64,000 bases of DNA from Spizellomyces punctatus DAOM BR117 (GCA_000182565.2 KQ257471.1); one strand, 5' to 3'. Positions 1 through 22,912 are shown, counted from the first letter of the stretch. Program-made: numbers and translations. The notes: generated from the letters alone by a model not told the origin.

Positions 1-369
1 CCAGAGCCCAAACTGCCTTTTCAATGCTTTTTCAATTCTACCCCTGTTACCCCCCACTAAATATGTTGTTACTCCTCATCGTCGAAAAGTGTCGCATTAT
101 CCCAACATTCATCACTAACAGTTGATCATGTATCCACAGAAAAAGTCTGTAAATTTCTTGTCCTTTTGTGTCCCATCCACATTCCACTCGTCAATTTTCA
201 GTCGAGATTCCTTGACATAATTGTCAAGGTAGACTTTCAATCGCTCCACAAGATGACCTTTTTTACCTTTGAAGTATTCCTGGATTTCTCGATCCATTTT
301 TCCTCGGATCTCTGCTGTAGTAACAAAGCAGTCGAGATCATCAACCTTTTCAATGTGTTCATTGATCCA
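1..369. repeat. Inner part of left inverted repeat (reverse complement of 20802-21171)
   Basis: Base-by-base match; I saw only one substitution (FFCGY vs FFRGY) and one C/G-run indel. Confidence 0.95.
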
Positions 370-477
370 ACATTCGAAGATATGGAGGAACAGTGGAGTT
401 GTTGCTTGTTCACCTGTGTACAACTTAGGTTGATGGTTGAGGATGAAATGCAGGACATCGACTCAATTGAAAGCCAT
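115..477 (-). pseudogene. Chimeric ORF: short unique N-terminus fused to the last ~85 aa of the primase-helicase
   Basis: ATG at 477, in-frame TGA at 463-465, then in frame with WINEHIEKVDD...YMINC, matching the C-terminus of 18381-21056. Confidence 0.5.
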
Positions 478-770
478 GTTAAATTACTGGCATTTTTAGA
501 GCTTTTATTAGGAGCATGTGAGGGCTTATCAGCGTCAATGGGAATAAAACTGTTATCTTAGTCGAGTGTTATGTAATAGACCCGTGCATCGCTGCACAAA
601 AAGCTGTGTTGGCATCTGTGTTTCAGATGCGTGTGGTTTCTTTTTCGTTTCTTTTTGTGGTCAGTCCAACGAAAGAAGCCATGAAAAGGAAAGGACTGTA
701 TGACCCAATGGGGATACAGTTCTCCATCTGCATCACCATCTTTTTATAGAGAAAAAAAGGGAAGCCGTGT

Positions 771-1082
771 TCACGTTTCCATCCGCATTTCTAGAACAAA
801 GAGCCTTTCATTATGATTGTGTCCTAAGAGAACGCAATCCTGCAAGATGGCTAAGTAGCCGGAATTTCGAAAGCAGATTTCATCCAGTTTCTTCAAGTGG
901 ACGATTGACATAATCTCTTTGAAGATGTGTTCGTTCTGGTCTGTTTTCGGAAGAAACAATATGATACATTTTTTATCTCCTGTCATCATACCTTGACAGT
1001 ACCTCCAGAAGTTACACATGTCGCCCTTCACGGCGTCCTTGATGTTCAATACTGAATGACCTTCAATATCTGCGTGTCGCAT
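771..1082 (-). CDS. Hypothetical viral protein (103 aa)
   Basis: ATG ORF co-oriented directly downstream of the fibre gene; no recognisable motif. Confidence 0.45.
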   Translation of the reverse strand: MRHADIEGHSVLNIKDAVKGDMCNFWRYCQGMMTGDKKCIILFLPKTDQNEHIFKEIMSIVHLKKLDEICFRNSGYLAILQDCVLLGHNHNERLFVLEMRMET

Positions 1083-1131
1083 TCTTATCTTGCATAGCTT
1101 CTTTTTTAAATGATGGCAGTGCGCGCGTCAT

Positions 1132-4100
1132 CTATTGTCCGAGTTCAGTGATTTTAATGAGGGTAACATCAGTTGTGTTATCGGGAGCAGCCTGACTGAT
1201 ACTAAAATTTGTGAAGTAAGCAATGTTATCGGACATCCCTGTAACAACAAAGGCTGCTGTGATTGTACGATTGACTCCCGAATTAAAGTTAAAGTCGCTC
1301 GAGTACACAAGAGGCATCGACCCAGCGCTTTGTCCGAGAAATATTGACAATGTACCATTTGAGTTTGCTGTGCCATGGAGGTTAAGCATCCACTCCATAA
1401 GTACCTTGCCAGGTGTCGAAACATAGAAGACCTTCGAGGCATTGTTGGATTGCCACACGTCTTTAGTCAAAAGTTTGATAACTTGAACATTTCTTAGAAA
1501 TGTTTGACTGGCAACCCATGGTTGAGTAGCACAAACCTGACCATTGCTATAGACAGCACCGTTCGAATACAGATTCCCTCCTGCAACAACATGTGCAGCA
1601 ACCGCGACACCTCCTGAAACGACCAATGCTCCTGTGGAAGAACTCAATGCTGGTGTTGTAGAATCAATTGTGACATTTCCGGTATTTGCCTGTATCGTTA
1701 GTCCTTTAGCGGTCTGTGCTTGGAGCCGAAGATTTCCAATATCGTTTCTCAACGTCATTGTGTTAACGCCTCCATCCAAACTCCGGTTGTTTCCGTTCAA
1801 AAACATAACAGCAGAACCTGCTGCATTCTGGAAGTATTGGATGGCACAACTATTGCTCCCAGAGTCGAGGTTTTTAAGAATAATAGCCCGTAGCCCGTTA
1901 AGTGGCGAACCGATAGTTAGATTACCGGACGAGATGAGGTCTCCGGTGTAGGTGTTAACCGAGAATCGGCTATTCCATGTTCCAAAGGTATCACTGGAAT
2001 AATGACCGAATTCATAACGACGTTGGTCTATGCTATCAGACGAGCCGGCGAGGTGGACATGAAGGGCGTCTCCGGAGTTGTTGTAGGAGATAGTGTAGTC
2101 ACCTTTCGTAGAGGGAGTGTCACTTCTCAACTTGAAATATCCACCTGTAGAGGCGGCTATGAGAACTTTTCCTGTAATGTTTCCACCTGAGAAGATACTT
2201 TTAGAAACCCCTATTCCTCCTTTAACCTGTAGAGCGCCACTTGATACGGTTGTTGCCTCGGATGTATCATTAGCAAGAATTGTATTTGCCAACAGATTAC
2301 TAGAAGATGTTATAACATCTTGTTTCGATGTTTGCAGTGCTGATATGCTGGGGGCATAGTCGACAATGTTTAAAATACTTCGAACGGAAATATCATTCAC
2401 AAGGGTAAATCCTTGGACATCATCTCCCATGACAAACATGTTTGACATTGGACTCATCGATGCAAGGGAATCGAGTAAAGGACTTGCATTTTGCTTCCCT
2501 GAGATGTCGACATTGGTAATGCCTAATATTGTCTTCACCTCTTCAGGAGTTTTCACCGAGAATGATGTAGCAGAACTCCCAACAATAAATGAATTTGCTG
2601 ATAATGCAAGACTGCTTATAGACGATAATAGTGGACTCGATGCCTGTTTATTAGCAATGGCTGTCCCTACATAACTCTCGGTTGCAAGTTTGAGATTATT
2701 GGAGAAAATGTCTCCACCAACGTACAGCATTTTAGCGACACCTAAACCTCCTGATACCTGCAATGCGCCCGTTATAGTCGACAATGAGTCTGTAGTCGAA
2801 GTGATGGCAATGGTTCCATTGGCTTTGAGAATGAATTGATGGGCGCTAGTTCCATAGTTATAAAACCCGAGGCTCCCATTGGTAAGTATACCTGTTCCAT
2901 TAGTTGCAGCGTGGTATATACCCCAAGAATTACTCGAAGCAGCATTGTTACTAATCAGAACGGCGGTAGACGCTGTGGCACTTGAAGGCGCATTGATGAC
3001 TATGGCAGCCGGCTGCAATCCTCCTCCACCTGCTCCTAGGGTTAGAGTTTTTCCTATGCCGACTCCACCTGATACCTGGAAAGCACCTGTTGTCACACTA
3101 GTTGAATCGGTTGTGTTTGGTATCTGCGTTACGCCTGTATTGGAAACTCTCAGAACGAAGCCTGTATTGTTATAAGAACTATTTAGACCGAATCCACCTG
3201 CTGATAATGTTCCATCTCCTGTGCTTCCGGCAACTCTCATGCCCCATGTAACATTACTCCCAGTATTTACTAAGGACAATGTTGTAGATGCTGCGCCATT
3301 TTGAATGGTTATACCCCTGCCAACAGTGGCACTGTTAAATGATAGCGCAGTCGATGAGGTAATAAGAGGTTGATATGAGGAAAGTATATTCGATGTAGGA
3401 ACAACTGAGAACCCTGTGGGTGTTCCCATGATGAAAGTGTTAGCCGCCGGCGTTAAACCGCTGATAGAATCGAGTAACGCAGACGCACTTTGTTTAGTAG
3501 CAAGTGCTGTATCTGCAGCGGCCTTGTTATTCTGAACAAGTGTTTGAAGCGAAGTCAAGGATTGACTAAGAGGACTTGTCATGCCGGTCATTGTAGCGAC
3601 ACTCCATTGTTGCATAGCCACTTCGACTCCATTTTGAATGATCAGTCCTTCAACATTTAGATCATGTTCAACAAGTAAGCCACCTGTCAAGAGTCCATTG
3701 CCTACATTATCTACTCGAAACACTATATCTGAGGTGCCTTGGACAAATATTCCACCACTCGTTGTTAGAGAATTAACATTCAATGCAGACGATGTAGTAA
3801 GAAGAGGTTGGAGTCCCCCTAGAATTGTAGAGACAGGTGATACTGTAAAGCCCCCAGCAGTTCCCATGACGAAGGAATTTGGTGTCGTTGTTAAACCACT
3901 GATTGCATCGAGTAAAGGACTGGCATTTTGCTTCGTAGCAATGGATGTTGTTAGAGAACTTTCAGTAGCCAATTTCACTCCATTTGTGTATACATCCCCT
4001 CCAACGTACAGTGATTTAGCGATGCCAACTCCACCTTTCACCTGGAATGAGCCGGATGTTGAGGAAGTAGCATCAGTTGTCGTATTGATAATAACATTCC

Positions 4101-7100
4101 CAGATGAGAGAATATCCAAATTCAAAGCCGTTGCATTATTTGTACCAATACGCAAATTACTAGCGGAGGCTCGAATGATGTAGTCTCCAGCAACGGTATT
4201 TGTTACCCATTGACCTGCTGTTGCTGTATATCCGAATGATGCATTGTTTATTTGAAAGGCAGCAGCGGCTGTAGTAGATATAATAGCATACTTTCCCATG
4301 TACACTGTGCCTTGCACTCCTAATCCACCGGGAATTTGTAATGCACCTGTTGTTGTAGAGGATGCATCATTTGTAGCATCCAGCGTAACGATTCCAGTGT
4401 TTGCCTGTATTGTTAGTCCTCTAGCGGTCTGTGCTTGAAGCTGAAGGTTACCAATATCGTTTCTCAACGTCATTGCGTTAATCCCACCATCCGAACTCCG
4501 GTTGTTTCCATTCGAAAACATCACTCCAGAACCCCCTGAAGCCGTTAGATAAAGAATGCTGCATCCGTTTGTCCCTGTACTCGGATTGCTTACGATAAGG
4601 GAACGTAAACCGTTTACAGAAGAGGCTCCGACAGTTAGGTCACTACCAACAAGGCATGAACCATTTGTGTCCACTCTTAGACCCAGAGATACTGCACTAG
4701 ATGTCCGTCCGTAAATGTAAATCGGCTTGTCTTGTGCTCCTAACCACGTAGCAGCATCACTAGCGTACCCTAAAAAACCAGAACCATCCAGACCCAGCCA
4801 AGACGATTTTGTACCGTCAAAACTATTTGAAATAAAGACAGACGAGCCTCCTGCTACAGAGGTGGTCGTTTGAACTCTGCTTCCTGTAATGACTTTCCCT
4901 GAGATATTGCCACCAAATGTAACATTATTTGAAGTTAGATTAGTTATCTGGCTTCCGACCCAAGGTTTGATAACATCATTGTCGTAATCTCTTAACATCG
5001 AGAGATTGATTGCTTGCTGAGGGTATTCGTATTTGATGCCTCGATAACATGAAGGCGTATCAAACAAGAGACGAGTACAACCTCCTATTGGATCAGAAGC
5101 AATTGCAACATTGCTCCCGGGTTCAAGTGGTGGCATGAAGGTAACAGGGTCTATTGGTTCGTAAACGGGGTTTCCATCGCCATCGAGTATAGGTTGTCCT
5201 TCCGCATCTTGTTGAACCTTACGTTTGCGTGACCCTCCGAAAATCATAGCCCATGGAAATGCACTTGTAATAGGAAGAATTGAATTGACAGCCATGGGAA
5301 CTGTAAGAGGAGGACTAACATTTGCAGGAAACGGAATTGTGGTCAACGGAGTCACTCCGGACAAAACAATTACGTTGCCCCCAGGAACATCCGTTTTCAA
5401 CACTTCTGCGGTATCAGACTGTTCAGTATTATCGGTATCCCTTTGTTTCGATAGTGGCATAGGGTCAATGAGTGTAAAGTTGTAGAGCGGGTACGAACCT
5501 GTTATTATAAGGTTTGGACTGTTACTTACGAATTGTGGCGGAATCATGTTATACTGAATGGTATTGCCGACAACGACCACACTCCCGTATGAATTGGTCG
5601 ATCCGATGTAATTGCCTTTCAAAGTATCCCCCACCCGAAGAACGGTATCGCTTCCTGTAAGAGAACATGAAATCAGATCTCCCGAAACTTGCACTCCATT
5701 GATACCTCTTAGGTTCGTTGACAAAATCGCACCATTTTTTTGCAGTCCAATTCCCGCAGCGATGTTTGAACTCAGAACACCATTGTTTAGAGTCAGATCG
5801 GGTGACTGTGCAGTAAGAGATAACCTGAACTCGTTGCCCACCCTGCTTACCCCTTGGGAGGCTGTAAAGGTATCCCGTATGGTACCTCTGTTGACCATAG
5901 CCAAACCGCTGTTAGCATCAACTTTTAGATCGAGTTGAAGGTCATTCTGTACTCTCTCGATACCATTGCTGCAAGTCAGTACGTCTTTAATGGTATCTGC
6001 TTTGACCATTTGGAGACAACTGCCAGCCTCACATTTGAGAGAGAGCATAATATCGTTTGTAGTGCCAGGACGAACCGCCACTCCATTAAAGTCCTGGAAA
6101 ATGTACCCACCTGTGAGTGCATTTCCAACAATTCTGATGGTCTGATTATCGACCAAACAGCCTATCTCTCGACGTCCAGCAGCCTCCGGACTCACGGTGA
6201 TCGCTCCAGTTTGAGAGCCTTGATAAAATTGCGAAAGATAGTCTTTACTTACAGCATACGAGCCACCTCCAATCGCAGGCAATGTTCCGCTTAACTTTAC
6301 ATTGGGTACACGCAACTCCTGAAGCGTGGATGAATAAGTGAATGAAGAACTTCCCGAGTAGCCATAAGTAAGGTTCCCATACATGATTTGTTCATATCCG
6401 GGTGATTTCAGGGACAATCTCGAACCCGCTTGACTGAATGTGGAACTATCTACCATAAGGCGAATGGCTGTGGTGTCTACCTCTCCTAAAACATTAGTCA
6501 TTTCAGTCAAACTATCGAATCCAAAGTCGAGCCATGAAGACCCGATGTCTAACAGCGTATCCGCACCGCTGGATGTCTTTATAGCCCCAAATGCTTTGAA
6601 CAGTTGGCTTGAGTTTGTTTCGAGTTCATCTGAACTATTCACCTTCAAACTCTTGTGAAGTTTGACACCAATTCCATTATCCCGATATAGAGGTTTCTTC
6701 AGTGTTTCTAGAGGCGGCGGTGGTGGAAAGTTCACTGAAAGTCCGTTTTCGTTAATGGATAATGTCTCATCCACTCGAATACCAACCGTCCGCGATTCAT
6801 CATCACGGTACATTGGGAACTCATAATTTTCGGGAATCACTTTCAGTTTTTCTTGTTCTACAGATAAAGATGAATCATCAAACTGAAGTTGGATATCATG
6901 ACCCTCTTTTGAGTAGACAAGAGGTTGATACGCAGATACGTCGATTGTGGTCAACCGACTCTCCTCATCAATTTCAAACCTCTTGTTATCAACATTTAAT
7001 TCAATGGATACGACGCCATGTTCATTCGTACAAGGTAAGCATTCAGAGGTGGTTTCAACCTCGTTGACTTTAAGTTCACCATTTTCATTAGATAAATGCT

Positions 7101-7239
7101 TAAATTCTCCAACATCGAACCCCTTTATCTTGGCTCCAGCATCGAAGCCAACCATTTCGCCTGTCACATATGGAGATAAGAGATTTGTGTTATCTACGGT
7201 ACGTAACCCCGTAGAATTTCTACTATTAATTCCAGACAT
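1132..7239 (-). CDS. Large fibre/spike-like virion protein (2035 aa)
   Basis: Short Gly/hydrophobic shaft-like repeats in the N-half; repeated TTDSTSxTTGA(L/F)QVxGGVGI and KQxASPLLDxIS modules in the C-half; lies in the capsid module. Confidence 0.75.
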   Translation of the reverse strand: MSGINSRNSTGLRTVDNTNLLSPYVTGEMVGFDAGAKIKGFDVGEFKHLSNENGELKVNEVETTSECLPCTNEHGVVSIELNVDNKRFEIDEESRLTTIDVSAYQPLVYSKEGHDIQLQFDDSSLSVEQEKLKVIPENYEFPMYRDDESRTVGIRVDETLSINENGLSVNFPPPPPLETLKKPLYRDNGIGVKLHKSLKVNSSDELETNSSQLFKAFGAIKTSSGADTLLDIGSSWLDFGFDSLTEMTNVLGEVDTTAIRLMVDSSTFSQAGSRLSLKSPGYEQIMYGNLTYGYSGSSSFTYSSTLQELRVPNVKLSGTLPAIGGGSYAVSKDYLSQFYQGSQTGAITVSPEAAGRREIGCLVDNQTIRIVGNALTGGYIFQDFNGVAVRPGTTNDIMLSLKCEAGSCLQMVKADTIKDVLTCSNGIERVQNDLQLDLKVDANSGLAMVNRGTIRDTFTASQGVSRVGNEFRLSLTAQSPDLTLNNGVLSSNIAAGIGLQKNGAILSTNLRGINGVQVSGDLISCSLTGSDTVLRVGDTLKGNYIGSTNSYGSVVVVGNTIQYNMIPPQFVSNSPNLIITGSYPLYNFTLIDPMPLSKQRDTDNTEQSDTAEVLKTDVPGGNVIVLSGVTPLTTIPFPANVSPPLTVPMAVNSILPITSAFPWAMIFGGSRKRKVQQDAEGQPILDGDGNPVYEPIDPVTFMPPLEPGSNVAIASDPIGGCTRLLFDTPSCYRGIKYEYPQQAINLSMLRDYDNDVIKPWVGSQITNLTSNNVTFGGNISGKVITGSRVQTTTSVAGGSSVFISNSFDGTKSSWLGLDGSGFLGYASDAATWLGAQDKPIYIYGRTSSAVSLGLRVDTNGSCLVGSDLTVGASSVNGLRSLIVSNPSTGTNGCSILYLTASGGSGVMFSNGNNRSSDGGINAMTLRNDIGNLQLQAQTARGLTIQANTGIVTLDATNDASSTTTGALQIPGGLGVQGTVYMGKYAIISTTAAAAFQINNASFGYTATAGQWVTNTVAGDYIIRASASNLRIGTNNATALNLDILSSGNVIINTTTDATSSTSGSFQVKGGVGIAKSLYVGGDVYTNGVKLATESSLTTSIATKQNASPLLDAISGLTTTPNSFVMGTAGGFTVSPVSTILGGLQPLLTTSSALNVNSLTTSGGIFVQGTSDIVFRVDNVGNGLLTGGLLVEHDLNVEGLIIQNGVEVAMQQWSVATMTGMTSPLSQSLTSLQTLVQNNKAAADTALATKQSASALLDSISGLTPAANTFIMGTPTGFSVVPTSNILSSYQPLITSSTALSFNSATVGRGITIQNGAASTTLSLVNTGSNVTWGMRVAGSTGDGTLSAGGFGLNSSYNNTGFVLRVSNTGVTQIPNTTDSTSVTTGAFQVSGGVGIGKTLTLGAGGGGLQPAAIVINAPSSATASTAVLISNNAASSNSWGIYHAATNGTGILTNGSLGFYNYGTSAHQFILKANGTIAITSTTDSLSTITGALQVSGGLGVAKMLYVGGDIFSNNLKLATESYVGTAIANKQASSPLLSSISSLALSANSFIVGSSATSFSVKTPEEVKTILGITNVDISGKQNASPLLDSLASMSPMSNMFVMGDDVQGFTLVNDISVRSILNIVDYAPSISALQTSKQDVITSSSNLLANTILANDTSEATTVSSGALQVKGGIGVSKSIFSGGNITGKVLIAASTGGYFKLRSDTPSTKGDYTISYNNSGDALHVHLAGSSDSIDQRRYEFGHYSSDTFGTWNSRFSVNTYTGDLISSGNLTIGSPLNGLRAIILKNLDSGSNSCAIQYFQNAAGSAVMFLNGNNRSLDGGVNTMTLRNDIGNLRLQAQTAKGLTIQANTGNVTIDSTTPALSSSTGALVVSGGVAVAAHVVAGGNLYSNGAVYSNGQVCATQPWVASQTFLRNVQVIKLLTKDVWQSNNASKVFYVSTPGKVLMEWMLNLHGTANSNGTLSIFLGQSAGSMPLVYSSDFNFNSGVNRTITAAFVVTGMSDNIAYFTNFSISQAAPDNTTDVTLIKITELGQ

Positions 7240-7311
7240 GTTATATTGTAGCTAGGAAGTAAAATTTGAGGAGCTTGGCAAAAGACGAAGTGCTCGACGG
7301 GCGATAAAACT

Positions 7312-8772
7312 TTACGCTATCCTCTGTTTCTTCCTCGGTGGAAGTGTGACATCTGCTCCTTTTCTCCTTCTACTTCGAACTGTAGGTTCGACATGAACTG
7401 TTTGTGTTGGAACCAGTGGTACAACATATTCCGCTTCACGTTGTCCTCGCAATCTTGTGAGTGGACGTACTTCACTTCCTAAGTCCGCGGTTAGCGGTAC
7501 TAACGTTGGAGGATTGACAGCAACATTCGGAGGTGCTGGTGCAAAATTGACTTTTCTCCTATTTTTGGCTCGTATATGTTTTTCAACTTCTTCAGGGGAT
7601 GTTAATCTAATTTCCTCTACTTCCTCTCGTTCGGGTATAGAAGAATCTATTCTTTGTCTTTTTACCGTGGTCTGCTTATCATCTGGTTGTTTGTACTGTC
7701 TTCTTTTGGTTCCATGAGGAGCAACTCCAGCAAAAATCACATCCGGAGGACGTGGAGGAGCAACAGGTGATGGGGTTGATGGTGGAGTTACTGGCTCTGT
7801 TTTTTGCTTCTTTTTATTCAACCGAGGAATCGGCGGGGGTGCATTTGCTTTCCTTTTGGAACCTGCTAATATGGTTGCTTCCTTACCTTTGAAGTGAAAT
7901 GGAGTTCTAGCAGGAACCGGGATAAATTTTTCATTGACGGAGTTTCTCTCTAAAACATCCGCTACACCAGACGGATCATGGCGGTCATTCAGGAGTACTG
8001 TATCATGTGGAATTGGTGCGGCACTACGAGGCATTGTTTCCACGGAGGCATTGATTTGAGGAGATTCCACATGAACCTCTGGAGTCAAGCCAGGGAAACT
8101 GCCTGGAATCAGTGGAATATAAGCATCGGACATTGTCATCGCATCCAATGGAACAGCAGCGCCAGTCCCATGATTGACACGGTCATTTCCAACTGCATCT
8201 CGTCTAATTTCCGTCTCCCTTGTTAGAATTACAGGTTCTAGGGGAGTAGAATTTACATTACATGGCTGTGCTGGAATCTCATTTCCATTAGGTGGTGCTT
8301 CAAACATTAAGCCCGTTTGGGAAGTCACTGATGCGGGATAGGAAAACACATGCCCAGATTCATCAGGAATCGGTAGTCCTGAAAGGGAATTTTGCATTCC
8401 AATGGTCAATGCATTCCCTTGTCTACTTGGAGTAATCGAATCAAGATACTTCTGTTTCTTCCTGTAATCTTCCTCTGCTTTAACATATTCAAGACCATCC
8501 CTGTAAGCCTTGGTAGTTCGTTGGGCAGCCGAAAATTTCAGAACATCAGAAGATGAGAGCCTCGGTTCATATTTCGGTGCTGCATAGTTCGTCTTTGTTG
8601 CTAGGTCTTTCTCATGGACATTGCGGTTCCACGAATAGACAACTTGTGGTCGTCCGAGGATATCAATCTTTGAATAGTCTAGTGCGACACCCACTTGACG
8701 TTTTTGCAGATTTGGAATCGGTGGCGAAATAGCATATGTATCACTCAAGTAATTGGCTCGGTAATATGCCAT
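7312..8772 (-). CDS. Basic Pro-rich protein, possible core/DNA-condensing protein (486 aa)
   Basis: Long ORF with several NLS-like basic clusters (KRKANAPPP, NKKKQK, PPRKKQR). Confidence 0.6.
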   Translation of the reverse strand: MAYYRANYLSDTYAISPPIPNLQKRQVGVALDYSKIDILGRPQVVYSWNRNVHEKDLATKTNYAAPKYEPRLSSSDVLKFSAAQRTTKAYRDGLEYVKAEEDYRKKQKYLDSITPSRQGNALTIGMQNSLSGLPIPDESGHVFSYPASVTSQTGLMFEAPPNGNEIPAQPCNVNSTPLEPVILTRETEIRRDAVGNDRVNHGTGAAVPLDAMTMSDAYIPLIPGSFPGLTPEVHVESPQINASVETMPRSAAPIPHDTVLLNDRHDPSGVADVLERNSVNEKFIPVPARTPFHFKGKEATILAGSKRKANAPPPIPRLNKKKQKTEPVTPPSTPSPVAPPRPPDVIFAGVAPHGTKRRQYKQPDDKQTTVKRQRIDSSIPEREEVEEIRLTSPEEVEKHIRAKNRRKVNFAPAPPNVAVNPPTLVPLTADLGSEVRPLTRLRGQREAEYVVPLVPTQTVHVEPTVRSRRRKGADVTLPPRKKQRIA

Positions 8773-8837
8773 ACTAGGTTTTTTCCTTTGCTATGTAGAG
8801 CTGAAAAAATAATATCTCTTCTGTTCTATAAATCAAG

Positions 8838-9137
8838 ATGCCTAATTGGTTTTCTAAAGCGAAAGCAAAGGCAAATGTTCTGTGGAATAACACGCCTAAC
8901 TATGTAGCAAAAGCAAGGAACTTTGCCAATCAAGCAGTCCGGCATGCCACTACGTTTAATAAGCATATACAGCACGTAAACCGCCAAGTACAAGAATCTC
9001 CTTTATTTTCACAGGGTATTCGGGAAAAGTCACAGAAGATTTCCAGTCATGGAGACACTGGGCTGAGGAAACTTACAGAACTTCACAAGAACGCTGACAA
9101 CTTTGTTGAGAGGGTGGCAGGTGGTAGAATCAAGTGA
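8838..9137 (+). CDS. Small basic amphipathic protein (99 aa)
   Basis: ATG ORF; N-terminus MPNWFSKAKAKANVLW has an amphipathic helical pattern. Confidence 0.6.
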   Translation: MPNWFSKAKAKANVLWNNTPNYVAKARNFANQAVRHATTFNKHIQHVNRQVQESPLFSQGIREKSQKISSHGDTGLRKLTELHKNADNFVERVAGGRIK

Positions 9138-9144
9138 TCTAATC

Positions 9145-9286: not shown

Positions 9287-9372
9287 AGGGAAGCTTGAAA
9301 GAGAAAGAGCCAAACGGCGGACAATGTTCACTGCGCTCTTGGCGCCCCAGGCGGGCTATCAATTTTAACCCT

Positions 9373-11943: not shown

Positions 11944-11984
11944 GATATTTCCTTACCTTTATGTAAAGACAAAGGAAAATTTAA

Positions 11985-14077: not shown

Positions 14078-15075
14078 TTCCTAGGCTGTTCTACAAATGA
14101 CTTGAACAGATTGTAATAGCGCTGATGAACAGCATAGGTATGACCCATCCTACGTTCGATTTCCTTCTGATAAGCGTGATCTCCATTATCCCTTTCAGAA
14201 AGATGCATCCCCACTGAAATTCGAAGGCGTTTCTGTGTTACACGCTTTCCAAACATTCGTTCCATAGCATTACTAAATTCGTCGCTATACCAGGCATCGG
14301 TTGGAATACTTCCATCAGGTTTTAGAAAAAGACGATCCTGTCCATTGCCCTTTCTGACATTTGCTAACATGTTAACATATGGTTGAATGGTGTTTCCCAT
14401 CTGAATGAGGACATTCTTTTCACCAGTCTTATTGCATTTTCGGATGAAGACAGTTTTCCCTTCATTGTTCACCATAACATTAGCGTCTTCACTAATCATC
14501 GCTTTGAAAATATCGCATCTACGAATTTTATCTGCATCCAGGTTCATCCCAAGAGCAATTAGAAATTGATGCTCCACTATATTTCCCTCATTGATGAATG
14601 TCAAAGCGACTTTCAATCCTGCTAAGAGTTCGCTGTAAGGGACATAATTGGCGATATCTTCCTGGGTCATCTCTTGGGATGCTGCTTCATTTTTTGACTG
14701 TTTGAACCTTTCGAATGTCACATTCTTGAAGTGAGAGTGGAATGTGTCTGTAAAATGACTGTCAAGGTCGTCCATTGCATCCTCTGCTAGATGAAGGATC
14801 ATTGCCTTTTCAGCCCTCGTAGCATTGCGTGCTATTTTTGACACCAATTTGATATAATTGTAATATGTATGCTCGTTTGTCCATTTTTCCTTGATCCTGC
14901 TAATGAGTATCTCAGGTGTTTGGAACAAGGAAAGAAGATTGTTGCCTTTGAGTTGATTTAGACGCGATTTATCCTGTTTCTTGGTGTTGGGTGACTGCTG
15001 AATCCTGTCAAGGATGGCATGTAGCGTTTCATATAGAGCCGACTCGGCATCAATGGGTTGGTGGTCTTGTTCCAT
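14074..15075 (-). CDS. Tyrosine recombinase (PLV/NCLDV type)
   Basis: IRRCD (R), NKTG (K), FGKRVTQKRLRIS (xxxR), MGHTYAVHQRYY (H...Y) in correct order. Confidence 0.82.
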   Translation of the reverse strand: MEQDHQPIDAESALYETLHAILDRIQQSPNTKKQDKSRLNQLKGNNLLSLFQTPEILISRIKEKWTNEHTYYNYIKLVSKIARNATRAEKAMILHLAEDAMDDLDSHFTDTFHSHFKNVTFERFKQSKNEAASQEMTQEDIANYVPYSELLAGLKVALTFINEGNIVEHQFLIALGMNLDADKIRRCDIFKAMISEDANVMVNNEGKTVFIRKCNKTGEKNVLIQMGNTIQPYVNMLANVRKGNGQDRLFLKPDGSIPTDAWYSDEFSNAMERMFGKRVTQKRLRISVGMHLSERDNGDHAYQKEIERRMGHTYAVHQRYYNLFKSFVEQPRN

Positions 15076-15176
15076 TTTCAGGGCTGATCTGTATTCTAAG
15101 GATAGAAGCCGGTTTACCTCTTATATAGACATTTTATTTCATGTTTTATCGATAGATTTTCTCCATCTATCGACCT

Positions 15177-15713
15177 ATGCCAGAACATGTTGTCCTTGAC
15201 ACTGAATCATCTATTGTAGATAAGATTTTCCCTCTAGTCGAACAACTGTACCGAATTCTTGCCAATGCTTCTGGGAAACCACCCACACCACCACCTGATG
15301 GTAAGACGATCAATATAATGTTAGCGGAAGATGAATCCATTTTAAGATGAATGTTTACGAGGTTCTGGAAGAGAGAACCTAATGTTACGGTATTCACAGC
15401 ATCTGATGGTATTGAGGCCATTGAACTCTTTAAAAAGCAACGATTTAATATCATTTTTGTTGATATCGACATGCCTTACAAAAATGGAGTGGAAGTAGCA
15501 CGTGAAATAAGACAGTATGAGAGGGAACACAATCTAGATCAAACGCCTATAATAGGAGTGTCTGGATTCACGGAGCGTCAGTACAAGGAACAGGCTTTTG
15601 CTGCCGGTATGAACAAATTTGTATCAAAAGGAACAGGGTATCAATTGAAAGATATTTACAGAATCGTTGTAGAATACTGTGGAGATCCACTTCGAGGCAA
15701 AACAGATCGATAA
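15177..15713 (+). pseudogene. Response-regulator receiver (REC) domain protein; one in-frame TGA at 15348-15350
   Basis: ATG 15177 in frame; IMLAEDE acidic pocket, ASDGIEA, IFVDIDMP phospho-acceptor Asp, PIIGVSG, AGMNKFVSK. Confidence 0.88.
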
Positions 15714-15736
15714 AAAAAAAGTATATAGTTTTTCCA

Positions 15737-15970
15737 TCAAGTATTTTTCGCTTGGATCATACATCCGTCCCAAGCTATAATGCTATCCTTCTTTGCTAAT
15801 GCTTTTGACCTCGTTATCATATATTCCCAGCAATAAAAGATGCGTTCCCCGATAGCGGGCTTGTCGTGAAGAAGTTTGACTTTGTTGCAATACGTTACAT
15901 ATGCTTCTTCACCCACTGTGGTACACCCGTGCTTCTCGCGGCTTTCTGCAAATTCATAGGCGCATTTCAT
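15737..15970 (-). CDS. Hypothetical small viral protein
   Basis: 77-aa ATG ORF, no motif. Confidence 0.3.
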   Translation of the reverse strand: MKCAYEFAESREKHGCTTVGEEAYVTYCNKVKLLHDKPAIGERIFYCWEYMITRSKALAKKDSIIAWDGCMIQAKNT

Positions 15971-16063
15971 TCGCAGATTATGTCCACGCGCAGCTATCCT
16001 TTGTGTACAGGCAACGATTTCTTTGAATTCATCAACAGTAGTAGCCCTTTTTGTCCACTCTTC

Positions 16064-17301
16064 TCATATCGTCTGCATCCGCATTTCATTCCGGTTCGAT
16101 TCTGTGCCGCCGTGCATCGAATTCAGAGGAGTTTCTTGCATTCGTGCCTCCACCGCGTCGCTGTAGATGAGCGCACTAAGGTCTCTCAAACGCGTTTGTT
16201 CAGCTTCCACCTGTGCATCACTGCGCTTGTTCGAGTGAGCTGAGGCATCCGGTGCAGGCGGTTGTGTTACGGGGGTTTGTTGTTCTTCTGGCGACGTCTC
16301 AGCGTTCCCCCTTTGGGGGGACGCGCTGGGGCGAAGCCCATCGGCGCGCTCCTTCGAGCGCTGTGAGCTGTGGTCTGTAGCCGTTGTGGGTTTCCTTGGG
16401 GGTGCTGTAGCTGTTGTGGGTTTCGTTGTGGTGCTGTAGCTGTTGTGGGTTTTCGTTGGGGGTGCTGTAGCTTGTGTGGGTTTCCGTTGGGGNNNNNNNN
16501 NNNNNNNNNNNNNNNNNNNNNNNNNNNNNNNNNNNNNNNNNNNNNNNNNNNNNNNNNNNNNNNNNNNNNNNNNNNNNNNNNNNNNNNNNNNNTGGGTGCT
16601 GTAGCCGTTGTGGATTCTGTTGCGGGTTGGTGGGCACGTCCACATTCAACACTGTTTTTCCACTGCCTGTTTCTCCTTTCGATCCATCTACCAATCAGAT
16701 CGTGCCAATTATTGATGGCCTGTGTCCACTCCGTTCGCCATTGCTGTTGTTGTTGGTCCCCCTTGTCCGGATGATAGTGTCGAAGGACATTCCTATGCGC
16801 GCGGCTTAATTCCTCCCGTGTGTTGGCTTTCATCTGGAAAAACCGAGCCAAGAAGTCCATGTTGGCATCGGTGATCTTTTTGCTTGACAATAGCGGCGGA
16901 TTGGCATCGTATTGCACTGGTGTTTGTTGGTGAGGAATAGCAAATTCTTCAGTGCCTCGACCAGCAGAAGACTGTCCACCACGCTGCTCGGTCGTCCTCT
17001 GTCGTTTCTTGGATCTCGTCCCCGGATCTGGTTGGACATCCGGTTCCTTGCGACGCTTGCCGTTTTGAGCACGACCAGTGGTGAGCTTGAACAGATGGTC
17101 GTAATGGGCAAAGAGGAGATCGTAGAGTGTGTTGTAAGAAGCACTCGGCACGGAGATGTCGCCTACATGGATGAGGTGGAATTTCTCTCGACACGTTTGG
17201 TGAACAGCATCTTCTACAAGGTTTGTGCTTTTCAGGGACGTCCGCACAGCCGTCGTTAGCTCATCGATCAGGGTCATTTTTTGTGGCGTTAGTATCCCCA
17301 T
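16064..17301 (-). CDS. J-domain (DnaJ, HPD) protein with Thr/Ala/Pro tandem-repeat linker; spans an N gap
   Basis: ELSRAHRNVLRHYHPDKGD...WTQAINNW; ATG at 17301; the C-terminal part is probably ORF 16064-16645, frame across the gap uncertain. Confidence 0.72.
16372..16620. repeat. ~30-bp tandem repeat inside the J-domain gene, with 100-N gap at 16493-16592
   Basis: Recurring GTGCTGTAGCTGTTGTGGGTTT units on both sides of the gap. Confidence 0.85.
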
Positions 17302-17613
17302 CGTGCGACAGGGGCTATATAAGCTAAAATTTTCGAATCGATCGATTGATGGGCACCACGCCACACCTCTGCGAACCTAAAAATGCAAAATTTTCGTGTT
17401 GCGTGACATGACGCATCTGTAAGCCACAAACCAATGAACCAGTACCATACGACCCTACCACCAGTAGGGTTGACTTTATGATCTATCTGTCTAGATTTTC
17501 GTGCACCAATGCACGGATTTTTATGGGTCTTTACATAAGCAGCTCTTTTTACTTTGATCTATCTGGAACGAAAGACGTCACATTTAAAAGCTGATTTAAT
17601 GTCAATATACAAC

Positions 17614-18030
17614 ATGTCCGGAAATCCCAGAGAAAGACCGTGTCGTGACTGCTTAGAGGTGATCCCTTGGGTGGCTCGACATATCAGATGTTTACATTGC
17701 TACATCAAGTACAAGGAACTGAAGTTAGCAGAAGCCATTGATCACTTCATGCGTCAAGATGATTCTGATTCTGAGTGACACCTTAACAACGCAGTGAAAA
17801 ATCACATTCCTGTCATCTTCGATTGTGGGCATCATGTCTGCGCAGAGTGTTTTGTCAACTGCTACAACTCAAACGAAGAGAATAGCCGCAGGTGTCCTTC
17901 CGAGCAAATGATTTCAACTTGTGGCATCGATCACCTGGCAATTCATCAATGGATTCACCCCTCCTCTAAAGTTACACCGGTAACCGAGGAGCATCATTGC
18001 CATGATAAAATCACCATTCATCATATATAG
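17614..18030 (+). pseudogene. Zn-finger/RING-like protein split by TGA at 17776-17778
   Basis: CRDC, CLHC, then in the same frame after the stop CGHHVCAEC...RCP. Confidence 0.5.
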
Positions 18031-18411
18031 TCCAGTCCTTTCTTCTAAGACATGCTTCAAACCATAGGATGTGCTTTTTGACATACTTCGGTGTACCCGA
18101 AACACCTTTGGAATTAGTTGTATCCCCCTTTCAATGTTAGATATATTGAACATCTTCACATTATCTTCTAAAGTCGGTCTTTCTTTTGACGGCTTTCTCA
18201 ACGATGTCCCAGCAAGTTCATTCCCAAATTGAGTTAATAATACATTAGAAGGAAGCCTCGACAGTACATTCTTGATTTCATCTAAGGTTACCATTTCGAT
18301 GCTTTTTTGTATGTTTATAAAAGCTCCCAGAAAAAAAACATTTTGTGCGTTTATTGCATTTTTCTCAATAACTGCAATTATTGCATTTAGGAACAGCGAT
18401 AAAAATCTCAA
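17914..18411 (-). CDS. Hypothetical protein with SYGLKH motif (true start probably the internal MVTLDE)
   Basis: STSYGLKHVLEERTGLYMMNGDFIMAMMLLGY, a motif I recall from uncharacterised viral/phage proteins. Confidence 0.6.
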   Translation of the reverse strand: MRFLSLFLNAIIAVIEKNAINAQNVFFLGAFINIQKSIEMVTLDEIKNVLSRLPSNVLLTQFGNELAGTSLRKPSKERPTLEDNVKMFNISNIERGIQLIPKVFRVHRSMSKSTSYGLKHVLEERTGLYMMNGDFIMAMMLLGYRCNFRGGVNPLMNCQVIDATS

Positions 18412-21056
18412 CTGACTATCAACAAACCATGACTGTAGAAATCACCAAACATAAGCAACCAGAATCTGAAGGAACCTTCGTTACTATGGACAAGAAACTG
18501 AAACTCGACCAAAAGCCAAAGATGTTATTCCGTAAAGACTATTTTGGAATTGATAATATTATCAAGTGGGATGTTGAAGAGTATGTCAATAATCACAAGA
18601 AGTATCCCTACTTGACAGAGTTCATTGGTGCTCTACCGGATGACCATGAGATAAATGCCTTTGTGGATTTCGACCTTTCTTATGCCACAGAAGAAGATTT
18701 ACCCTCGGATGAGGAAGAAGATGCTATTCAAATTTTTGTTCTGCAAACTTTTGAATCCTTATTTTTAAATGATCTTTTTTCTTACCGATGTGCATTTTGC
18801 AGGAAAGGCTTTGCGTCTAAGAAAGAGAAGAGTGAAGAGACAGGAGAATATGTAGAGAAGGGCAAGTGGAAAGTATCGTTCCGCATCTTTGCTGACCTGC
18901 GCACCACTCATAAAGAGATGCGAAACCGCTTGCTTCACTACTTTCCCGACATGAGCAAAGCGCCTGCTTGTATTCGTGATAAGACTTTTGAGCATGATTC
19001 GTTTTTTGACCCTTCCGTCTATGAAAAAAATCGCAAGATTTGCTGCGTGGGGAAGAGAAAGAGCCAATATGACTCGCGGGTTCTAGAACATCTTGATACC
19101 GCCGACCCATTAGAAGCCTTCTTGATTCAACACATCGACAAGTATGCAGAATGTGCGGAGTGGGCTATTCAAATGGCAGATCAAAAAGAAGCCCCAAAAA
19201 AGCAAAAGACCTCTACAAAGTCCACGAAGAAATCCAATGATTCTTTTGAGCAAATGGCAAAGGAAGTTATTCTGGAATCATTTCCTAATGTGTACCTGCT
19301 TCGAGATCTCGGGAAAGCCGATCAATTAGATCATGGAATCAATGTCTTTGTCAAGACAAAACACTGCTTTCTCATCGACGCCAATCATGATGTATCTGTG
19401 GCTACTATGTACTTCTCCATCACGAAGTCAGGAATCAAGTTTACATGTAAGCAATGCGATGAGGAGACCGATGCAAAGCCTCACAAGCATACTGGCATCA
19501 AAAAATTGTTCACTCGGATTAACAGTCCTATCCAATCAGATGATGCTCTTTTACATGCATTAACTTCTCCTAGCCATCTCGGTATTGCCCGGGCACTAGC
19601 GGCGAAAAGCGAGGGTGACATTCTCTTCGATGGTAGCAACTTTTGGATGTTTCGGAAGCAGTGGGTTATCATAGCCGATCAAGTTGTCCGGCTATTTATG
19701 AAGAACACGTTGAACCCCCAGTGTGAGCAGTACGTAACAGAACTTTATGATCGTCTATCTGAAGAAGAGGATAAAGACAAGAAAGCCGACATCTTGGAAC
19801 AAATAAGGAAAGTCGAACGCGGGCACAAACTTTTAACTACTAACACCGACATAAAATCCATCATCTCTTGCCTCAAAACGGAGGTGTACAACGAGGGCTT
19901 CCTGAAATGCCGAGATAACAACCCTAATATTATTGGATGCAATAACGGGTACTTTGATCTGCGGGATTATACTTTCAAGCAGTACACAAAGGACATCTTC
20001 ATCACGCATACTGTTGGCTATGACTACTTTGAACGGGATGAAGATTTTGACCCAGACACATATCAGCAAGTATTAGGTGTCGTGGCACAATACTTCCCAG
20101 AGGATGACGAACGAGAGATCGCTCAAATATTCTCAGGATACTGTCTACGTGGTGATCATAAGGAGAAGATCTTTTGCGTTTTCACCGACAAGAGCGACGG
20201 CTTCAATGGTAAGACAAAGTTTGCTCAGATGATCACCATTGCTATGGGAACTTATGCGACCGAAGGTAACAACGATCATCTATATGTAAGTACCAGGTTC
20301 TCGAACCAAAATGGTCATAATGCAGCAATGTTTGCCCACGAAGGAGACCGACTGGCAATCTATGATGAGATGGATGAAAAGAAGACTATAGACACGAAAG
20401 AGATGAAAAGACGCAATGGAGGCGCTACTAGAGGCAAAGGTTGTAGACCATCTTCAAAGGAGTTTGAGTTTGTCGATTTCATGACAAAAATGATCATGAT
20501 TTTTAACAATGGAAACCAACCGAAATACGATACCAGTGATAATCCTTTCCTGGAGCGGATGCTTGTATTGCCTTTTCGAGCCAAGTTCCTTAGTCCCGCT
20601 GAGTACGAAAAATCGGAATATCAATACAAATTCTTAGCAAATCCTCACATCGACGAACGTTTCTCTGTGTGGCGTCCTTACATACTCAAGTGGATGATTG
20701 AAGGGCACAAGAAGTACATGGAAAAAGGATTTAATGACATCCCGGCTGAATGCCGTAAGTGGAAGGAAGATGTCACCAAAGACGTTGATAACATAGAAGA
20801 ATGGATCAATGAACACATTGAAAAGGTTGATGATCTCGACTGCTTTGTTACTACAGCAGAGATCCGAGGAAAAATGGATCGAGAAATCCAGGAATACTTC
20901 AAAGGTAAAAAAGGTCATCTTGTGGAGCGATTGAAAGTCTACCTTGACAATTATGTCAAGGAATCTCGACTGAAAATTGACGAGTGGAATGTGGATGGGA
21001 CACAAAAGGACAAGAAATTTACAGACTTTTTCCGTGGATACATGATCAACTGTTAG
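18381..21056 (+). CDS. AEP primase-polymerase fused to D5-like superfamily 3 helicase
   Basis: AFVDFD (motif I), KVSFRIF (motif II variant), FDPSVYEKNR (motif III), C/H cluster, D5_N IGCNNGYFDL, Walker A GFNGKT, LAIYDE; first ATG ~18429. Confidence 0.92.
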   Translation: MHLGTAIKISTDYQQTMTVEITKHKQPESEGTFVTMDKKLKLDQKPKMLFRKDYFGIDNIIKWDVEEYVNNHKKYPYLTEFIGALPDDHEINAFVDFDLSYATEEDLPSDEEEDAIQIFVLQTFESLFLNDLFSYRCAFCRKGFASKKEKSEETGEYVEKGKWKVSFRIFADLRTTHKEMRNRLLHYFPDMSKAPACIRDKTFEHDSFFDPSVYEKNRKICCVGKRKSQYDSRVLEHLDTADPLEAFLIQHIDKYAECAEWAIQMADQKEAPKKQKTSTKSTKKSNDSFEQMAKEVILESFPNVYLLRDLGKADQLDHGINVFVKTKHCFLIDANHDVSVATMYFSITKSGIKFTCKQCDEETDAKPHKHTGIKKLFTRINSPIQSDDALLHALTSPSHLGIARALAAKSEGDILFDGSNFWMFRKQWVIIADQVVRLFMKNTLNPQCEQYVTELYDRLSEEEDKDKKADILEQIRKVERGHKLLTTNTDIKSIISCLKTEVYNEGFLKCRDNNPNIIGCNNGYFDLRDYTFKQYTKDIFITHTVGYDYFERDEDFDPDTYQQVLGVVAQYFPEDDEREIAQIFSGYCLRGDHKEKIFCVFTDKSDGFNGKTKFAQMITIAMGTYATEGNNDHLYVSTRFSNQNGHNAAMFAHEGDRLAIYDEMDEKKTIDTKEMKRRNGGATRGKGCRPSSKEFEFVDFMTKMIMIFNNGNQPKYDTSDNPFLERMLVLPFRAKFLSPAEYEKSEYQYKFLANPHIDERFSVWRPYILKWMIEGHKKYMEKGFNDIPAECRKWKEDVTKDVDNIEEWINEHIEKVDDLDCFVTTAEIRGKMDREIQEYFKGKKGHLVERLKVYLDNYVKESRLKIDEWNVDGTQKDKKFTDFFRGYMINC

Positions 21057-21114
21057 TGATGAATGTTGGGATAATGCGACACTTTTCGACGATGAGGAGT
21101 AACAACATATTTAG

Positions 21115-21450
21115 TGGGGGGTAACAGGGGGTAGAATTGAAAAAGCATTGAAAAGGCAGTTTGGGCTCTGGATGAAGCATGTAGGGAAAAGAGAGAAGAG
21201 CTCAACCCCCTGTCACTTTTGACTCCATACATGTAGAGACGTACCCCTGTAACCCCCTGTTTTTCATATACGGAACAAAAAAATATATAGAGAGAACCTT
21301 CTCTCTTTTAGAAAACAAAACTAAATATGTAAAAAGATAGGGGTTATAGGGGGTAGCCCTTGATGCTATGTAGAGTGGAAGGACAGGGGTTGGACAGGGG
21401 GTATGGAGGGAAAACCGGCTCTACATACCCCCTGTAAAAGAGGGGGTAAG
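21115..21450. promoter_or_regulatory. Candidate replication origin: CCCCTGT/ACAGGGG iterons around an AT-rich core
   Basis: Multiple copies in both orientations; inverted pair ~21242-21260 / ~21338-21355 flanks an A/T-rich tract. Confidence 0.5.
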
Positions 21451-21552
21451 GACTAAAGAAAAAAGAAGCAAAAGCGGGGACTTAGTCATCCTGCATGCTG
21501 GCTACATAAGGAAACTAATGTCGAGTTAGAACCAGTGTTGAGTTTGAAGTAG

Positions 21553-21600
21553 GTCGAGTTTGGACACGTGAAATATTAGACGCGTAAAATTTTACGTGTA
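21553..21600. repeat. 48-bp direct repeat copy 1 (loxP-like architecture)
   Basis: Matches 22597-22644 with 2 differences; 14-bp arms around an 8-bp spacer. Confidence 0.85.
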
Positions 21601-21647
21601 AGTGCGCTATGTCTGGTGTGAGGTGGCTCGGCTCTCCAAAGGTACTC

Positions 21648-21797
21648 TAGATAACCACGTGCTACCTGTGTTGATTATTGGGTGGTGTAGGTTGAGGGTG
21701 AATGACCCCGAAGTCAACTTGTATGTTATACATGGAAACTGAGATTGGGGTCATTTACCCTCGCTACCCAGATAGCAAGGGAAACCTGGTTCACTGC
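21648..21797. repeat. Second, inverted copy of the 9145-9286 stem-loop element
   Basis: Stem 21694-21711/21745-21762. Confidence 0.8.
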
Positions 21798-22034
21798 GAC
21801 TTATTTGCATGAGTTACAATGCTTAGGTAAGCAAAAGATGGCATCCCACTTTGTCGATGAGAGATCGAACATGTTATATCGATAGGATGAGAGGCCATCT
21901 ATTGGACCATCTTATCGATAAGATGGGAGAGTTCCTTTTCCGCTTATAAAAGAGGGTCGCCGGTCTCCCCAGCTCGAAGCCTTCTTTTCAAAAACGATTC
22001 CATATACAACATTCGAATACAGCTGCAATTAACA

Positions 22035-22433
22035 ATGGAGAAAATGATGAGGCGAGCAAGTGAAGAAGAGCTAAATGAGATGAAGAGGTTCTACCAACTC
22101 ACAGTTGACAATGAGATGCACCAAGCAGTCGTAACAACGAATCGCCGTAGAAAGGAGGCAATTGAAAGGAAAATGGTTAAGAAGGATGTGAGGACAATCA
22201 TAGGCGAAGATGGTTCAAATATGTATGTGGCATCACTAGTAGAGGAGAAGCTAAATGCTTTGGTGGATGACGTCAAGCAGGGGCTAATGGAGGCAGGATA
22301 TACAGAAGACCAAGTGATGGAGATTATCACAATCTACCACAAACAACAAAAAGTGTTGAGACTGAAGGTCTCCCGAGTACCATCAGTAAAGGAAGGTGGA
22401 GAGATGGAGTCCCAAGCTAAAGTGATTTCATAA
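22035..22433 (+). CDS. Hypothetical helical protein near the right end (132 aa)
   Basis: ATG in AACAATG context, TATAAAA at ~21945. Confidence 0.6.
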   Translation: MEKMMRRASEEELNEMKRFYQLTVDNEMHQAVVTTNRRRKEAIERKMVKKDVRTIIGEDGSNMYVASLVEEKLNALVDDVKQGLMEAGYTEDQVMEIITIYHKQQKVLRLKVSRVPSVKEGGEMESQAKVIS

Positions 22434-22596
22434 AGTGTGGCATTTGAACCTAGTGGCAAGATAAAGTGATTTCATAAAGTGTGGCGTTTGAACCTAGTAG
22501 CAAGAATTTGCTCGAGTAAAATCACCAAATGAACTGCCCAAGGGAAACGAACCGCCCAAGGGGAAACGAACCATGGAGTCTTGAGAAGAAGCAAAT

Positions 22597-22644
22597 GTCA
22601 AGTTTGGACACGTGAAATATTAGATGCGTAAAATTTTACGTGTA
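22597..22644. repeat. 48-bp direct repeat copy 2
   Basis: Matches 21553-21600. Confidence 0.85.
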
Positions 22645-22862
22645 TGTCAGAGAAAATTTTCGGCATAGATGCACACATCCCTTCATCAATAGTCCTGGAC
22701 TTGGACAAACACCTTGGAAGACTCGAAACACTTTGAAACACTTTGAAACACTTTGAAACACTCCAATGCATTGGGCAAACACTTCAATACAGCTTATTAT
22801 ATAGAATATTATAAGCCGGGTATATCATATTATACACCGGGTATATCATATTATAAGCCGGC

Positions 22863-22912
22863 TGATACAGTGCATCAGATAAGCCATTCGGCTTATCTGA
22901 TGCACTGTATCA
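22863..22912. repeat. Perfect terminal hairpin: 23-bp stem, ATTC loop
   Basis: TGATACAGTGCATCAGATAAGCC-ATTC-GGCTTATCTGATGCACTGTATCA. Confidence 0.97.

Follow-up and report, generated by a model that had tools for sequence, protein, structure and literature searches.

An integrated Polinton-like virus copy, apparently silent and decaying, in the chytrid Spizellomyces punctatus

Positions 1-22914 of a 64,000-nucleotide stretch of the Spizellomyces punctatus DAOM BR117 genome (GCA_000182565.2, KQ257471.1; the whole stretch is referred to as the window) make up the greater part of a single integrated copy of a Polinton-like virus (PLV) of the S. punctatus group, with this chytrid as its host; exact matching of the proteins assigned them to this strain, on a contig of 321,667 bp. 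Taken jointly, the data are very probably explained by a copy of such a virus that is silent, young and decaying, that carries a replication module of its own and that is one of several copies in the genome. The gene inventory comprised a double jelly-roll (DJR) major capsid protein (MCP), a penton, an A32 ATPase, a fibre-like open reading frame (ORF) of 2035 amino acids (aa), a D5-type SF3 primase-helicase and an integrase of rve-chromodomain type, together with genes for a tyrosine-recombinase-like protein, a receiver domain (REC) and a weakly matched J domain. Long terminal inverted repeats (TIRs) were also present. A prediction made earlier from the sequence alone (hereafter the original prediction) had described an integrated PLV of a chytrid; this was borne out, and the features that it listed were all recovered in place or close by.

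The ORF layout of the first ~23 kb was compact, with uninterrupted ORFs and short intergenic regions, and TATA boxes were found upstream of most element genes; such promoters suggest transcription by the host RNA polymerase II in the nucleus. The GC content was 0.36-0.47 in the element vs. 0.47-0.49 in the host flank, two assembly gaps (runs of N) fell within the element (13004-13347 and 16493-16592), and a scan for tRNA genes found none. From the gene order of sister copies we estimated a total length of ~24.6 kb, with ~1.7 kb of the left part beyond the window edge. This agrees with the ~24-25 kb proposed originally and is consistent with a terminal repeat that would run past the left edge of the window.

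Virion, integration and replication genes

The MCP (417 aa) is encoded at 9373-10626 on the minus strand. Its AlphaFold2 (AF2) model, built with an alignment of homologues, had a pLDDT of 68.8 and a pTM of 0.73, and Foldseek returned 292 PDB matches at E ≤ 0.001, the best being Vp54 of PBCV-1 (E 8e-14, TM ~0.6) and further leading ones the SGIV MCP, Sputnik MCP, PRD1 P3 and faustovirus MCP. On this model the protein is identified as a double jelly-roll capsid protein. The penton (239 aa; 11224-11943, minus strand) was modelled in the same way as a single jelly-roll with a pLDDT of 77.5, and 14 PDB matches were obtained at E ≤ 0.001, led by the Sputnik penton (1.4e-8) and followed by the mavirus penton and the adenovirus penton base; E values for these three ranged from 1e-8 to 1e-4 with TM scores of only ~0.4, because the target structures carry extra domains. 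Structure prediction of both genes had been proposed as a check on jelly-roll folds, and both folds were found, double in the MCP and single in the penton.

The genome-packaging ATPase of A32 (FtsK-HerA) type (234 aa; 11985-12689, plus strand) matched Pfam PF04665 (Pox_A32) with 31.2 bits (cut-off 22.8) and phrog_2666 at 9.9e-9. The 2035-aa ORF (1132-7239, minus strand) has a high content of Ser, Gly, Thr and Asn and contains repeated modules, among them 'GALQVxGGxGV' five times and 'KQxASPLLDSIS' four times. Residues 100-134 gave a borderline match to Av_adeno_fibre, the N-terminus of adenovirus fibres (22.0 bits vs. a cut-off of 22.7), and no match was found in the PDB sequence search or in PHROGs; the label 'fibre' is thus plausible and weakly tested. 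Capsid, penton, ATPase and the 2035-aa fibre are open in this copy, with 50-97% identity across Spizellomycetales and environmental contigs.

Two integration enzymes had been predicted, and each was recovered in part. The first, an rve-type integrase with a C-terminal chromodomain (12791-14077, plus strand), is present and interrupted: an in-frame TGA lies at 12827-12829, the same frame closes again at 12996-12998, and the rve core falls in the gap 13004-13347. A frameshift near 12955-12998 was considered and dropped, as the alignment evidence for it was weak. Directly after the gap follows the conserved rve segment 'QTNGQVER', and the chromodomain (Pfam, E 3e-13) lies at the C-terminus of the ORF 13382-14077 (plus strand). 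A metagenomic relative (L001), which encodes an MCP C-terminus followed by an integrase with an rve core of 30.7 bits (cut-off 32.6), could be aligned to the parts on both sides of the gap; over the N-terminal part (from 12791) identity was 57%, with the alignment passing over the TGA. The C-terminal half was only 22-28% identical to two chromovirus integrases of the window, indicating that the integrase is the virus's own gene.

The second enzyme, a tyrosine-recombinase-like protein of 333 aa (14074-15075, minus strand), has an open frame and was assigned from its conserved residue columns. A search of 1.84 billion representatives gave 39 relatives at E ≤ 1e-3, and in an alignment of 27 of them R186, K216, R285, H312 and Y321 were invariant or nearly so; this R/K/R/H/Y pattern would be that of the catalytic set. 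PF00589 was matched by 2 of these 27 homologues, the window protein itself having no Pfam match, and PDB searches with the single sequence and with the profile were both empty. The nearest Atlas clusters belonged to Preplasmiviricota.

The replication gene encodes a D5-like SF3 primase-helicase of 875 aa (18429-21056, plus strand). D5_N was matched above the Pfam cut-off, and a PHROG family annotated as DNA primase matched residues 299-813 with E 4e-38. The SF3/D5 part of the predicted AEP-SF3 helicase therefore stands, whereas its AEP part is unconfirmed: no AEP or primase family was found by Pfam in residues 1-320, even at E ≤ 10, and the PDB sequence search of the helicase gave no match. 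Pfam scans of ORFs above 50-100 aa found no protein-primed polymerase of the PolB family.

Termini, copy number and decay

The right end of the element is closed by a terminal palindrome with a perfect 23-bp stem (22862-22914; dG -27.7, z -12.8), and chromovirus homology begins at ~22916; the end at 22912 given originally was accurate to within ~5 bp. The adjoining CpG-decayed fragment (22916-23101) is host flank and not virus. It matches the reverse complement of 43903-44106, a segment internal to the chromovirus at 37558-47013, with an identity of 86-87%, and is interrupted at 23101 by another long terminal repeat (LTR) retrotransposon, the chromovirus at 23101-27996. Since the right-end hairpin abuts chromovirus sequence and the LTR elements are nested, the virus sits among chromodomain-bearing retrotransposons, an insertion site that would fit integration guided by a chromodomain. 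A continuation of the virus beyond the LTR insertion, suggested by 128 reads loose-ended at 23101, was rejected, as these reads came from other chromovirus copies.

The inner part of the left TIR (1-369) is the reverse complement of 21171-20802, from which it differs by one substitution and one single-base indel (~99.5% identity). The final ~255 nt of the helicase gene are thus duplicated there in reverse orientation, and as the first base of the window lies inside the repeat, the left end is missing. In the right terminal region (20802-22914) the inverted repeat is shown for 20802-21171 and probably takes in the remainder. This region contains an ORF of 132 aa (ORF132; 22035-22433, plus strand) whose 90% cluster has five genome members; SPPG_01931 and SPPG_01937 flank one sister copy, and SPPG_02192 lies three gene models ahead of the MCP SPPG_02195. 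As this spacing corresponds to the order ORF132, fibre, 486-aa ORF and MCP in the window, the TIR would reach the terminus and measure ~2.1 kb. ORF132 is bracketed by 51-nt direct repeats (21553-21603 and 22597-22647, 94% identical), a 44-nt tandem duplication is located at its stop codon (22408-22495), and a variant with a ~70-bp duplication near 22782 is indicated by ChIP reads for other copies (chromatin immunoprecipitation; libraries described below).

A search for sister copies, recommended with the original prediction, found sister proteins on at least five other contigs of the same assembly, annotated within contigs of 0.15-1.9 Mb. At E ≤ 0.001 the MCP had 25 relatives and the penton 20, all named ones from Spizellomycetales (Spizellomyces, Powellomyces, Phlyctochytrium, Gaertneriomyces, Geranomyces and Thoreauomyces). 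The window MCP was 97% identical to SPPG_02195, and the hexon and penton of Powellomyces chytrid fungus MELD virus 5 were 68 and 67% identical to the MCP and penton of the window, respectively. Relatives from S. palustris and Powellomyces were located on small separate contigs of 14-25 kb. In a FastTree phylogeny of 24 MCPs (2 of the 25 matches, both short fragments, were omitted) the four S. punctatus copies and S. palustris formed one clade with a local support of 99. The phylogenetic check proposed originally was thereby carried out for the MCP among these relatives. Scans of IMG/VR with the MCP and penton alignments returned no relatives, and a scan of JGI metagenomes returned one 1530-bp contig. 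Two annotated sister proteins are fusions, SPPG_01933 (1046 aa) of a recombinase-like protein with a cytosine-5 DNA methyltransferase and SPPG_07203 (601 aa) of an MCP with an AP2/ERF domain; they could be mis-joined gene models or real cargo of sister copies.

Four sequencing runs were aligned to 3201-23200 at ≥98% likeness. Two of them (X16 and X17) were ChIP libraries from 2026 with the same species label and a target that is not stated. Both yielded reads in each of the 30 bins, right end included. In X17, depth per read direction was ~10-33 at 3.2-15.2 kb and 18-37 at 21.2-23.2 kb vs. 3.8-9.6 at 15.9-21.2 kb, and X16 presented the same pattern; the stretch at 15.9-21.2 kb, with the J-like gene, a 126-aa ORF (ORF126) and the helicase, thus had a coverage 3-5 times below that of both the terminal region and the virion module. 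The helicase was also the sole member of its 90% protein cluster, with no sister copy there. These two results taken together indicated that the replication module appears to be single-copy and the virion module on which it sits multi-copy.

In the RNA run (X15), which carries the same species label and of which only second mates were aligned, with no host gene aligned for comparison, 24 reads were found in 26,394,413 records (1,029 million letters, ~6% of the run), corresponding to ~0.07x over 20 kb. An even spread of these letters over the ~24 Mb genome would give a depth of ~40x. The copy looks transcriptionally silent in this run. RNA-seq and read depth, both suggested as checks with the original prediction, thus gave a near-empty RNA run and an uneven ChIP depth over the element.

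The variants between copies pointed in one direction. Among the 217 variant places in X17, 190 were transitions. At 28 of the best-supported 38 variant places in the element the window has A/T vs. G/C in most reads. Of these 28 differences private to this copy, 24 fall at places that the other copies have as CpG (background ~25%; binomial p 2e-11). The lone TIR substitution is a CpG to CpA change, every in-frame stop found is TGA, and most differences between the chromovirus fragment in the flank and its full-length relative are of the CpG-decay type. Observed/expected CpG was lowest in the retrotransposon nest (0.64), intermediate in the element (0.79) and highest at 49-64 kb (0.92). Such a CpG-to-TpG bias is, as read from the sequence, the probable signature of methylated-cytosine deamination in silenced repeats. 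All these factors taken together, namely the TGA stops, the near-absence of RNA and the CpG decay, indicated a young yet decaying provirus.

An intact latent provirus, able to reactivate and form particles, would account for the silence as latency and for the TGAs as assembly errors or tolerated changes. In its favour, no frame in the virion module, the tyrosine recombinase or the helicase is broken or shortened relative to homologues, the TIR arms are ~99.5% identical, private changes are few, and relatives occur on separate contigs of 14-25 kb. Two conserved genes are, however, stopped by TGA where their homologues continue, no alternative letter or indel was present at the TGA sites among the rows listed for the ChIP reads (≥98%), RNA was near-absent, and silenced methylated repeats typically show such a CpG-to-TpG bias; we consider this explanation decidedly unlikely. 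The morphogenetic module had been predicted to be open, and its ORFs are indeed so, as are those of the tyrosine recombinase and the helicase, but not the integrase and the REC gene, both with in-frame TGA, and two gaps lie in the element. The further suggestion that this copy may still make particles was too strong, given the interrupted integrase and REC genes, 24 RNA reads in 26.4 million and CpG-to-TpG decay.

REC gene, other reading frames and neighbouring elements

The REC gene is a stand-alone response-regulator receiver of 178 codons (15177-15713, plus strand; PF00072). Its frame is stopped by a TGA at 15348-15350, which falls after strand 1 and before helix 1. With the TGA read as X, profile positions 1-100 of 111 were matched at E 1e-20, with the D, S and K columns conserved. 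Its sister SPPG_07595 was 94% identical over the aligned columns, with a gene model that omits the stretch containing the stop, and shares a 579-kb contig with the penton homologue SPPG_07591; an environmental 959-bp contig encodes a REC protein 61% identical, with Gln at the stop position. The second copy and the environmental relative indicated that REC is a conserved gene of the virus lineage, broken in this copy. A further ORF (16267-17301, minus strand) includes a J-domain-like segment with an HPD motif, for which Pfam DnaJ (PF00226) gave E 0.0031 and 18 bits (cut-off 27.8) over profile positions 12-37 only; its C-terminus is uncertain because of the gap 16493-16592. Of the signalling and chaperone cassette originally proposed, the signalling gene was thus retained, when read through its stop, whereas the chaperone gene remained below threshold.

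ORF126 (17914-18294, minus strand) matched phrog_9576 with E 1.1e-5. Between it and the J-like gene, a 59-aa ORF (17599-17778, plus strand) has two CxxC pairs and a weak RING/U-box-like zinc-binding match (E 0.0055, below the cut-off). Within the virion module, a Pro-rich, basic ORF of 486 aa (7312-8772, minus strand) had no Pfam or PHROG match and an uninformative best Atlas score of 0.77; a sister protein, SPPG_08968, belongs to the same 90% cluster. It is divergently oriented with respect to a 99-aa ORF (ORF99; 8838-9137, plus strand), each of the two having its own TATA box. ORF99 and a Lys/Glu/Gln-rich ORF of 106 aa (10877-11197, minus strand) were called as ORFs with no family assigned, and an ORF of 103 aa (771-1082, minus strand) had no Pfam or PHROG match; for the small ORFs as a set PHROGs gave no match. 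No adenain-like (Ulp1) protease was present among the Pfam and PHROG matches; a very divergent one could lie in an unassigned ORF. Pfam scans of the element found no chitinase. A 92-nt palindromic element (9156-9247; dG -17.5, z -4.9) lies between the convergent genes ORF99 and MCP, with a second copy, 85% identical, in the terminal region (21686-21777); it may act as a terminator in both directions or be a small mobile hairpin.

In the flank, the chromovirus at 37558-47013 is a full-length Ty3/gypsy element with a GC content of ~0.55, well above the rest of the window; it has a single 2528-aa ORF (38219-45805, minus strand) with RT, RNase H, integrase and chromodomain, and one of its LTRs occurs as a tandem duplication (45580-46482, period 603). 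The chromovirus at 23101-27996 has LTRs of ~500-600 bp and a tandem repeat with an 18-nt period at 23631-23864, and a Ty1/copia fragment (28049-30917; gag-pre-integrase, rve and RVT_2) has its frame split into several ORFs. A host kinesin KIF9-like domain was found at 59381-60451, with surroundings (49-64 kb) devoid of long ORFs, which is consistent with intron-split host genes, unlike the intronless viral block.

Known relatives, alternative explanations and meaning

The original prediction had placed the virus in a little-described lineage, a view that gave way on comparison with papers of 2021. In the passages available, PMC7805220 (Bellas & Sommaruga 2021) describes one integrated PLV in S. 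punctatus, after which an 'S. punctatus group' of 27 viruses is named, and PMC8502044 (Starrett et al. 2021) describes a common virion module combined with varied replicases in six Powellomyces MELD viruses, for which adenovirus-like fibres, YRec and S3H helicases are also reported; the kind of virus is therefore already known. The PLV of PMC7805220 shares with the window copy the host species, integration in a large contig and an MCP type of its own; the one element reported there may or may not be this locus. Membership of the window MCP in the S. punctatus-group cluster is supported indirectly, through 97% identity to an S. punctatus protein. For its integrated elements taken together, the same source reports TIRs with a tyrosine recombinase or an rve integrase, and it gives a chitinase in 52% of the S. 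punctatus group, in contrast with none here. The words 'response regulator' and 'DnaJ' have no occurrence in its main text as far as available, and the literature searched held no paper joining 'polinton-like' with 'response regulator', gene-content supplements lying outside that search. The replicase variety of Powellomyces MELD viruses 1-6 matches the single-copy replication module found here; they differ in host genus and in being read-assembled genomes, whereas this copy is integrated, interrupted and CpG-decayed. PMC8502044 also notes, in the same passages, that adintovirus integrases carry a chromodomain, and a 2026 preprint (10.64898/2026.06.19.733378) places chytrid A32 ATPases among 'Aquintoviruses'.

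Mavirus-type provirophages share with the element the closest penton fold, integration, silence, an integrase and TIRs, and a virophage-like element that, like mavirus in Cafeteria, keeps silent in the chytrid until infection by a giant virus would fit the RNA silence of an uninfected culture. Its penton is closest to those of Sputnik and mavirus, and giant viruses of zoosporic fungi exist, some with PLV-like integrases (PMC13533422, in part), so that Mycodnaviridae would be candidate helpers. Unlike such provirophages, the MCP matches PBCV-1 and iridovirus proteins at least as well as Sputnik, and the canonical TATA boxes of most genes would point to host polymerase II; Spizellomyces and Powellomyces do not occur in the passages of PMC13533422, and no feature of the window connects the element with a giant virus. 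A helper-dependent element is accordingly improbable.

Strict Polintons/Mavericks and adintoviruses have the DJR MCP, penton, A32 ATPase and TIRs in common with the element, and probably the rve integrase, which is interrupted here and has its core in a gap. A Polinton/Maverick-type transposon that proliferates within the genome with no extracellular phase would agree with multiple copies clustered by host genus, with the integrases and TIRs and with a site among transposons. Open, conserved capsid, penton, ATPase and fibre genes are, however, hard to explain without virions, and in contrast with strict Polintons/Mavericks no pPolB or adenain-like protease was found here, the D5-type helicase taking the replicase role; we regard this explanation as very improbable. 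A contaminant or mis-assembly outside the fungal chromosome, in keeping with two gaps and a GC content below that of the host flank, has next to no likelihood, as the independent ChIP libraries cover 30 of 30 bins including the right end, sister copies lie inside contigs of 0.15-1.9 Mb and the element ends exactly at a chromovirus fragment with a second copy in the window.

Several points weigh against the reading of a silent, young and decaying PLV copy with its own replication module. The ChIP target is unspecified, and differential enrichment could mimic differences in copy number; sister copies are known only through annotated proteins and read depth. Silence rests on one RNA run, ~6% of it, and applies to one condition. 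The CpG analysis used the best 38 variant places, 189 further places lying outside it, and methylation is deduced from the CpG pattern. The status of the tyrosine recombinase depends on motifs and 2 of 27 homologues, with an empty PDB profile search, and the roles proposed below for REC and the J-like protein are guesses. The core of the integrase and a portion of the J-like gene fall in the two gaps, and the window does not reach the left end, a possible target-site duplication or the outer TIR.

Under the preferred reading, the D5-type primase-helicase would start replication and host polymerases would extend; the A32 ATPase would package the linear genome into an icosahedral shell of DJR capsid and penton, with the very long fibre at the vertices. 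The rve-chromodomain integrase, the tyrosine recombinase or both may integrate the virus into heterochromatin, and host silencing would follow. This copy would have inserted into a chromovirus-rich, heterochromatic-looking region and gained CpG-to-TpG changes, including the TGAs in the integrase and REC genes. As a guess, REC and the J-like gene may be accessory and target the host His-Asp phosphorelay (REC as a decoy) and Hsp70 (through J-like recruitment). A bolder and rather doubtful proposal is that REC, perhaps with the J-like protein, would be a functional accessory of the Spizellomycetales PLV lineage acting as a phosphate sink or decoy of the phosphorelay, and that sister copies would be infectious and swap replication modules while the virion module stays fixed; if true, this would be the first experimentally tractable double-stranded DNA (dsDNA) virus of a transformable chytrid.

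To what had been published, the analysis adds an exact right end in the form of a terminal hairpin, an insertion into a chromovirus nest next to a chromodomain integrase, a replication module apparently unique to the copy, a REC gene conserved in a second copy and an environmental relative, and evidence that the host silences the copies and that they erode from CpG to TpG. Fungal dsDNA viruses are rare and S. punctatus is genetically tractable; an annotated provirus family in this species would therefore be useful for the virus-host biology of early-diverging fungi.

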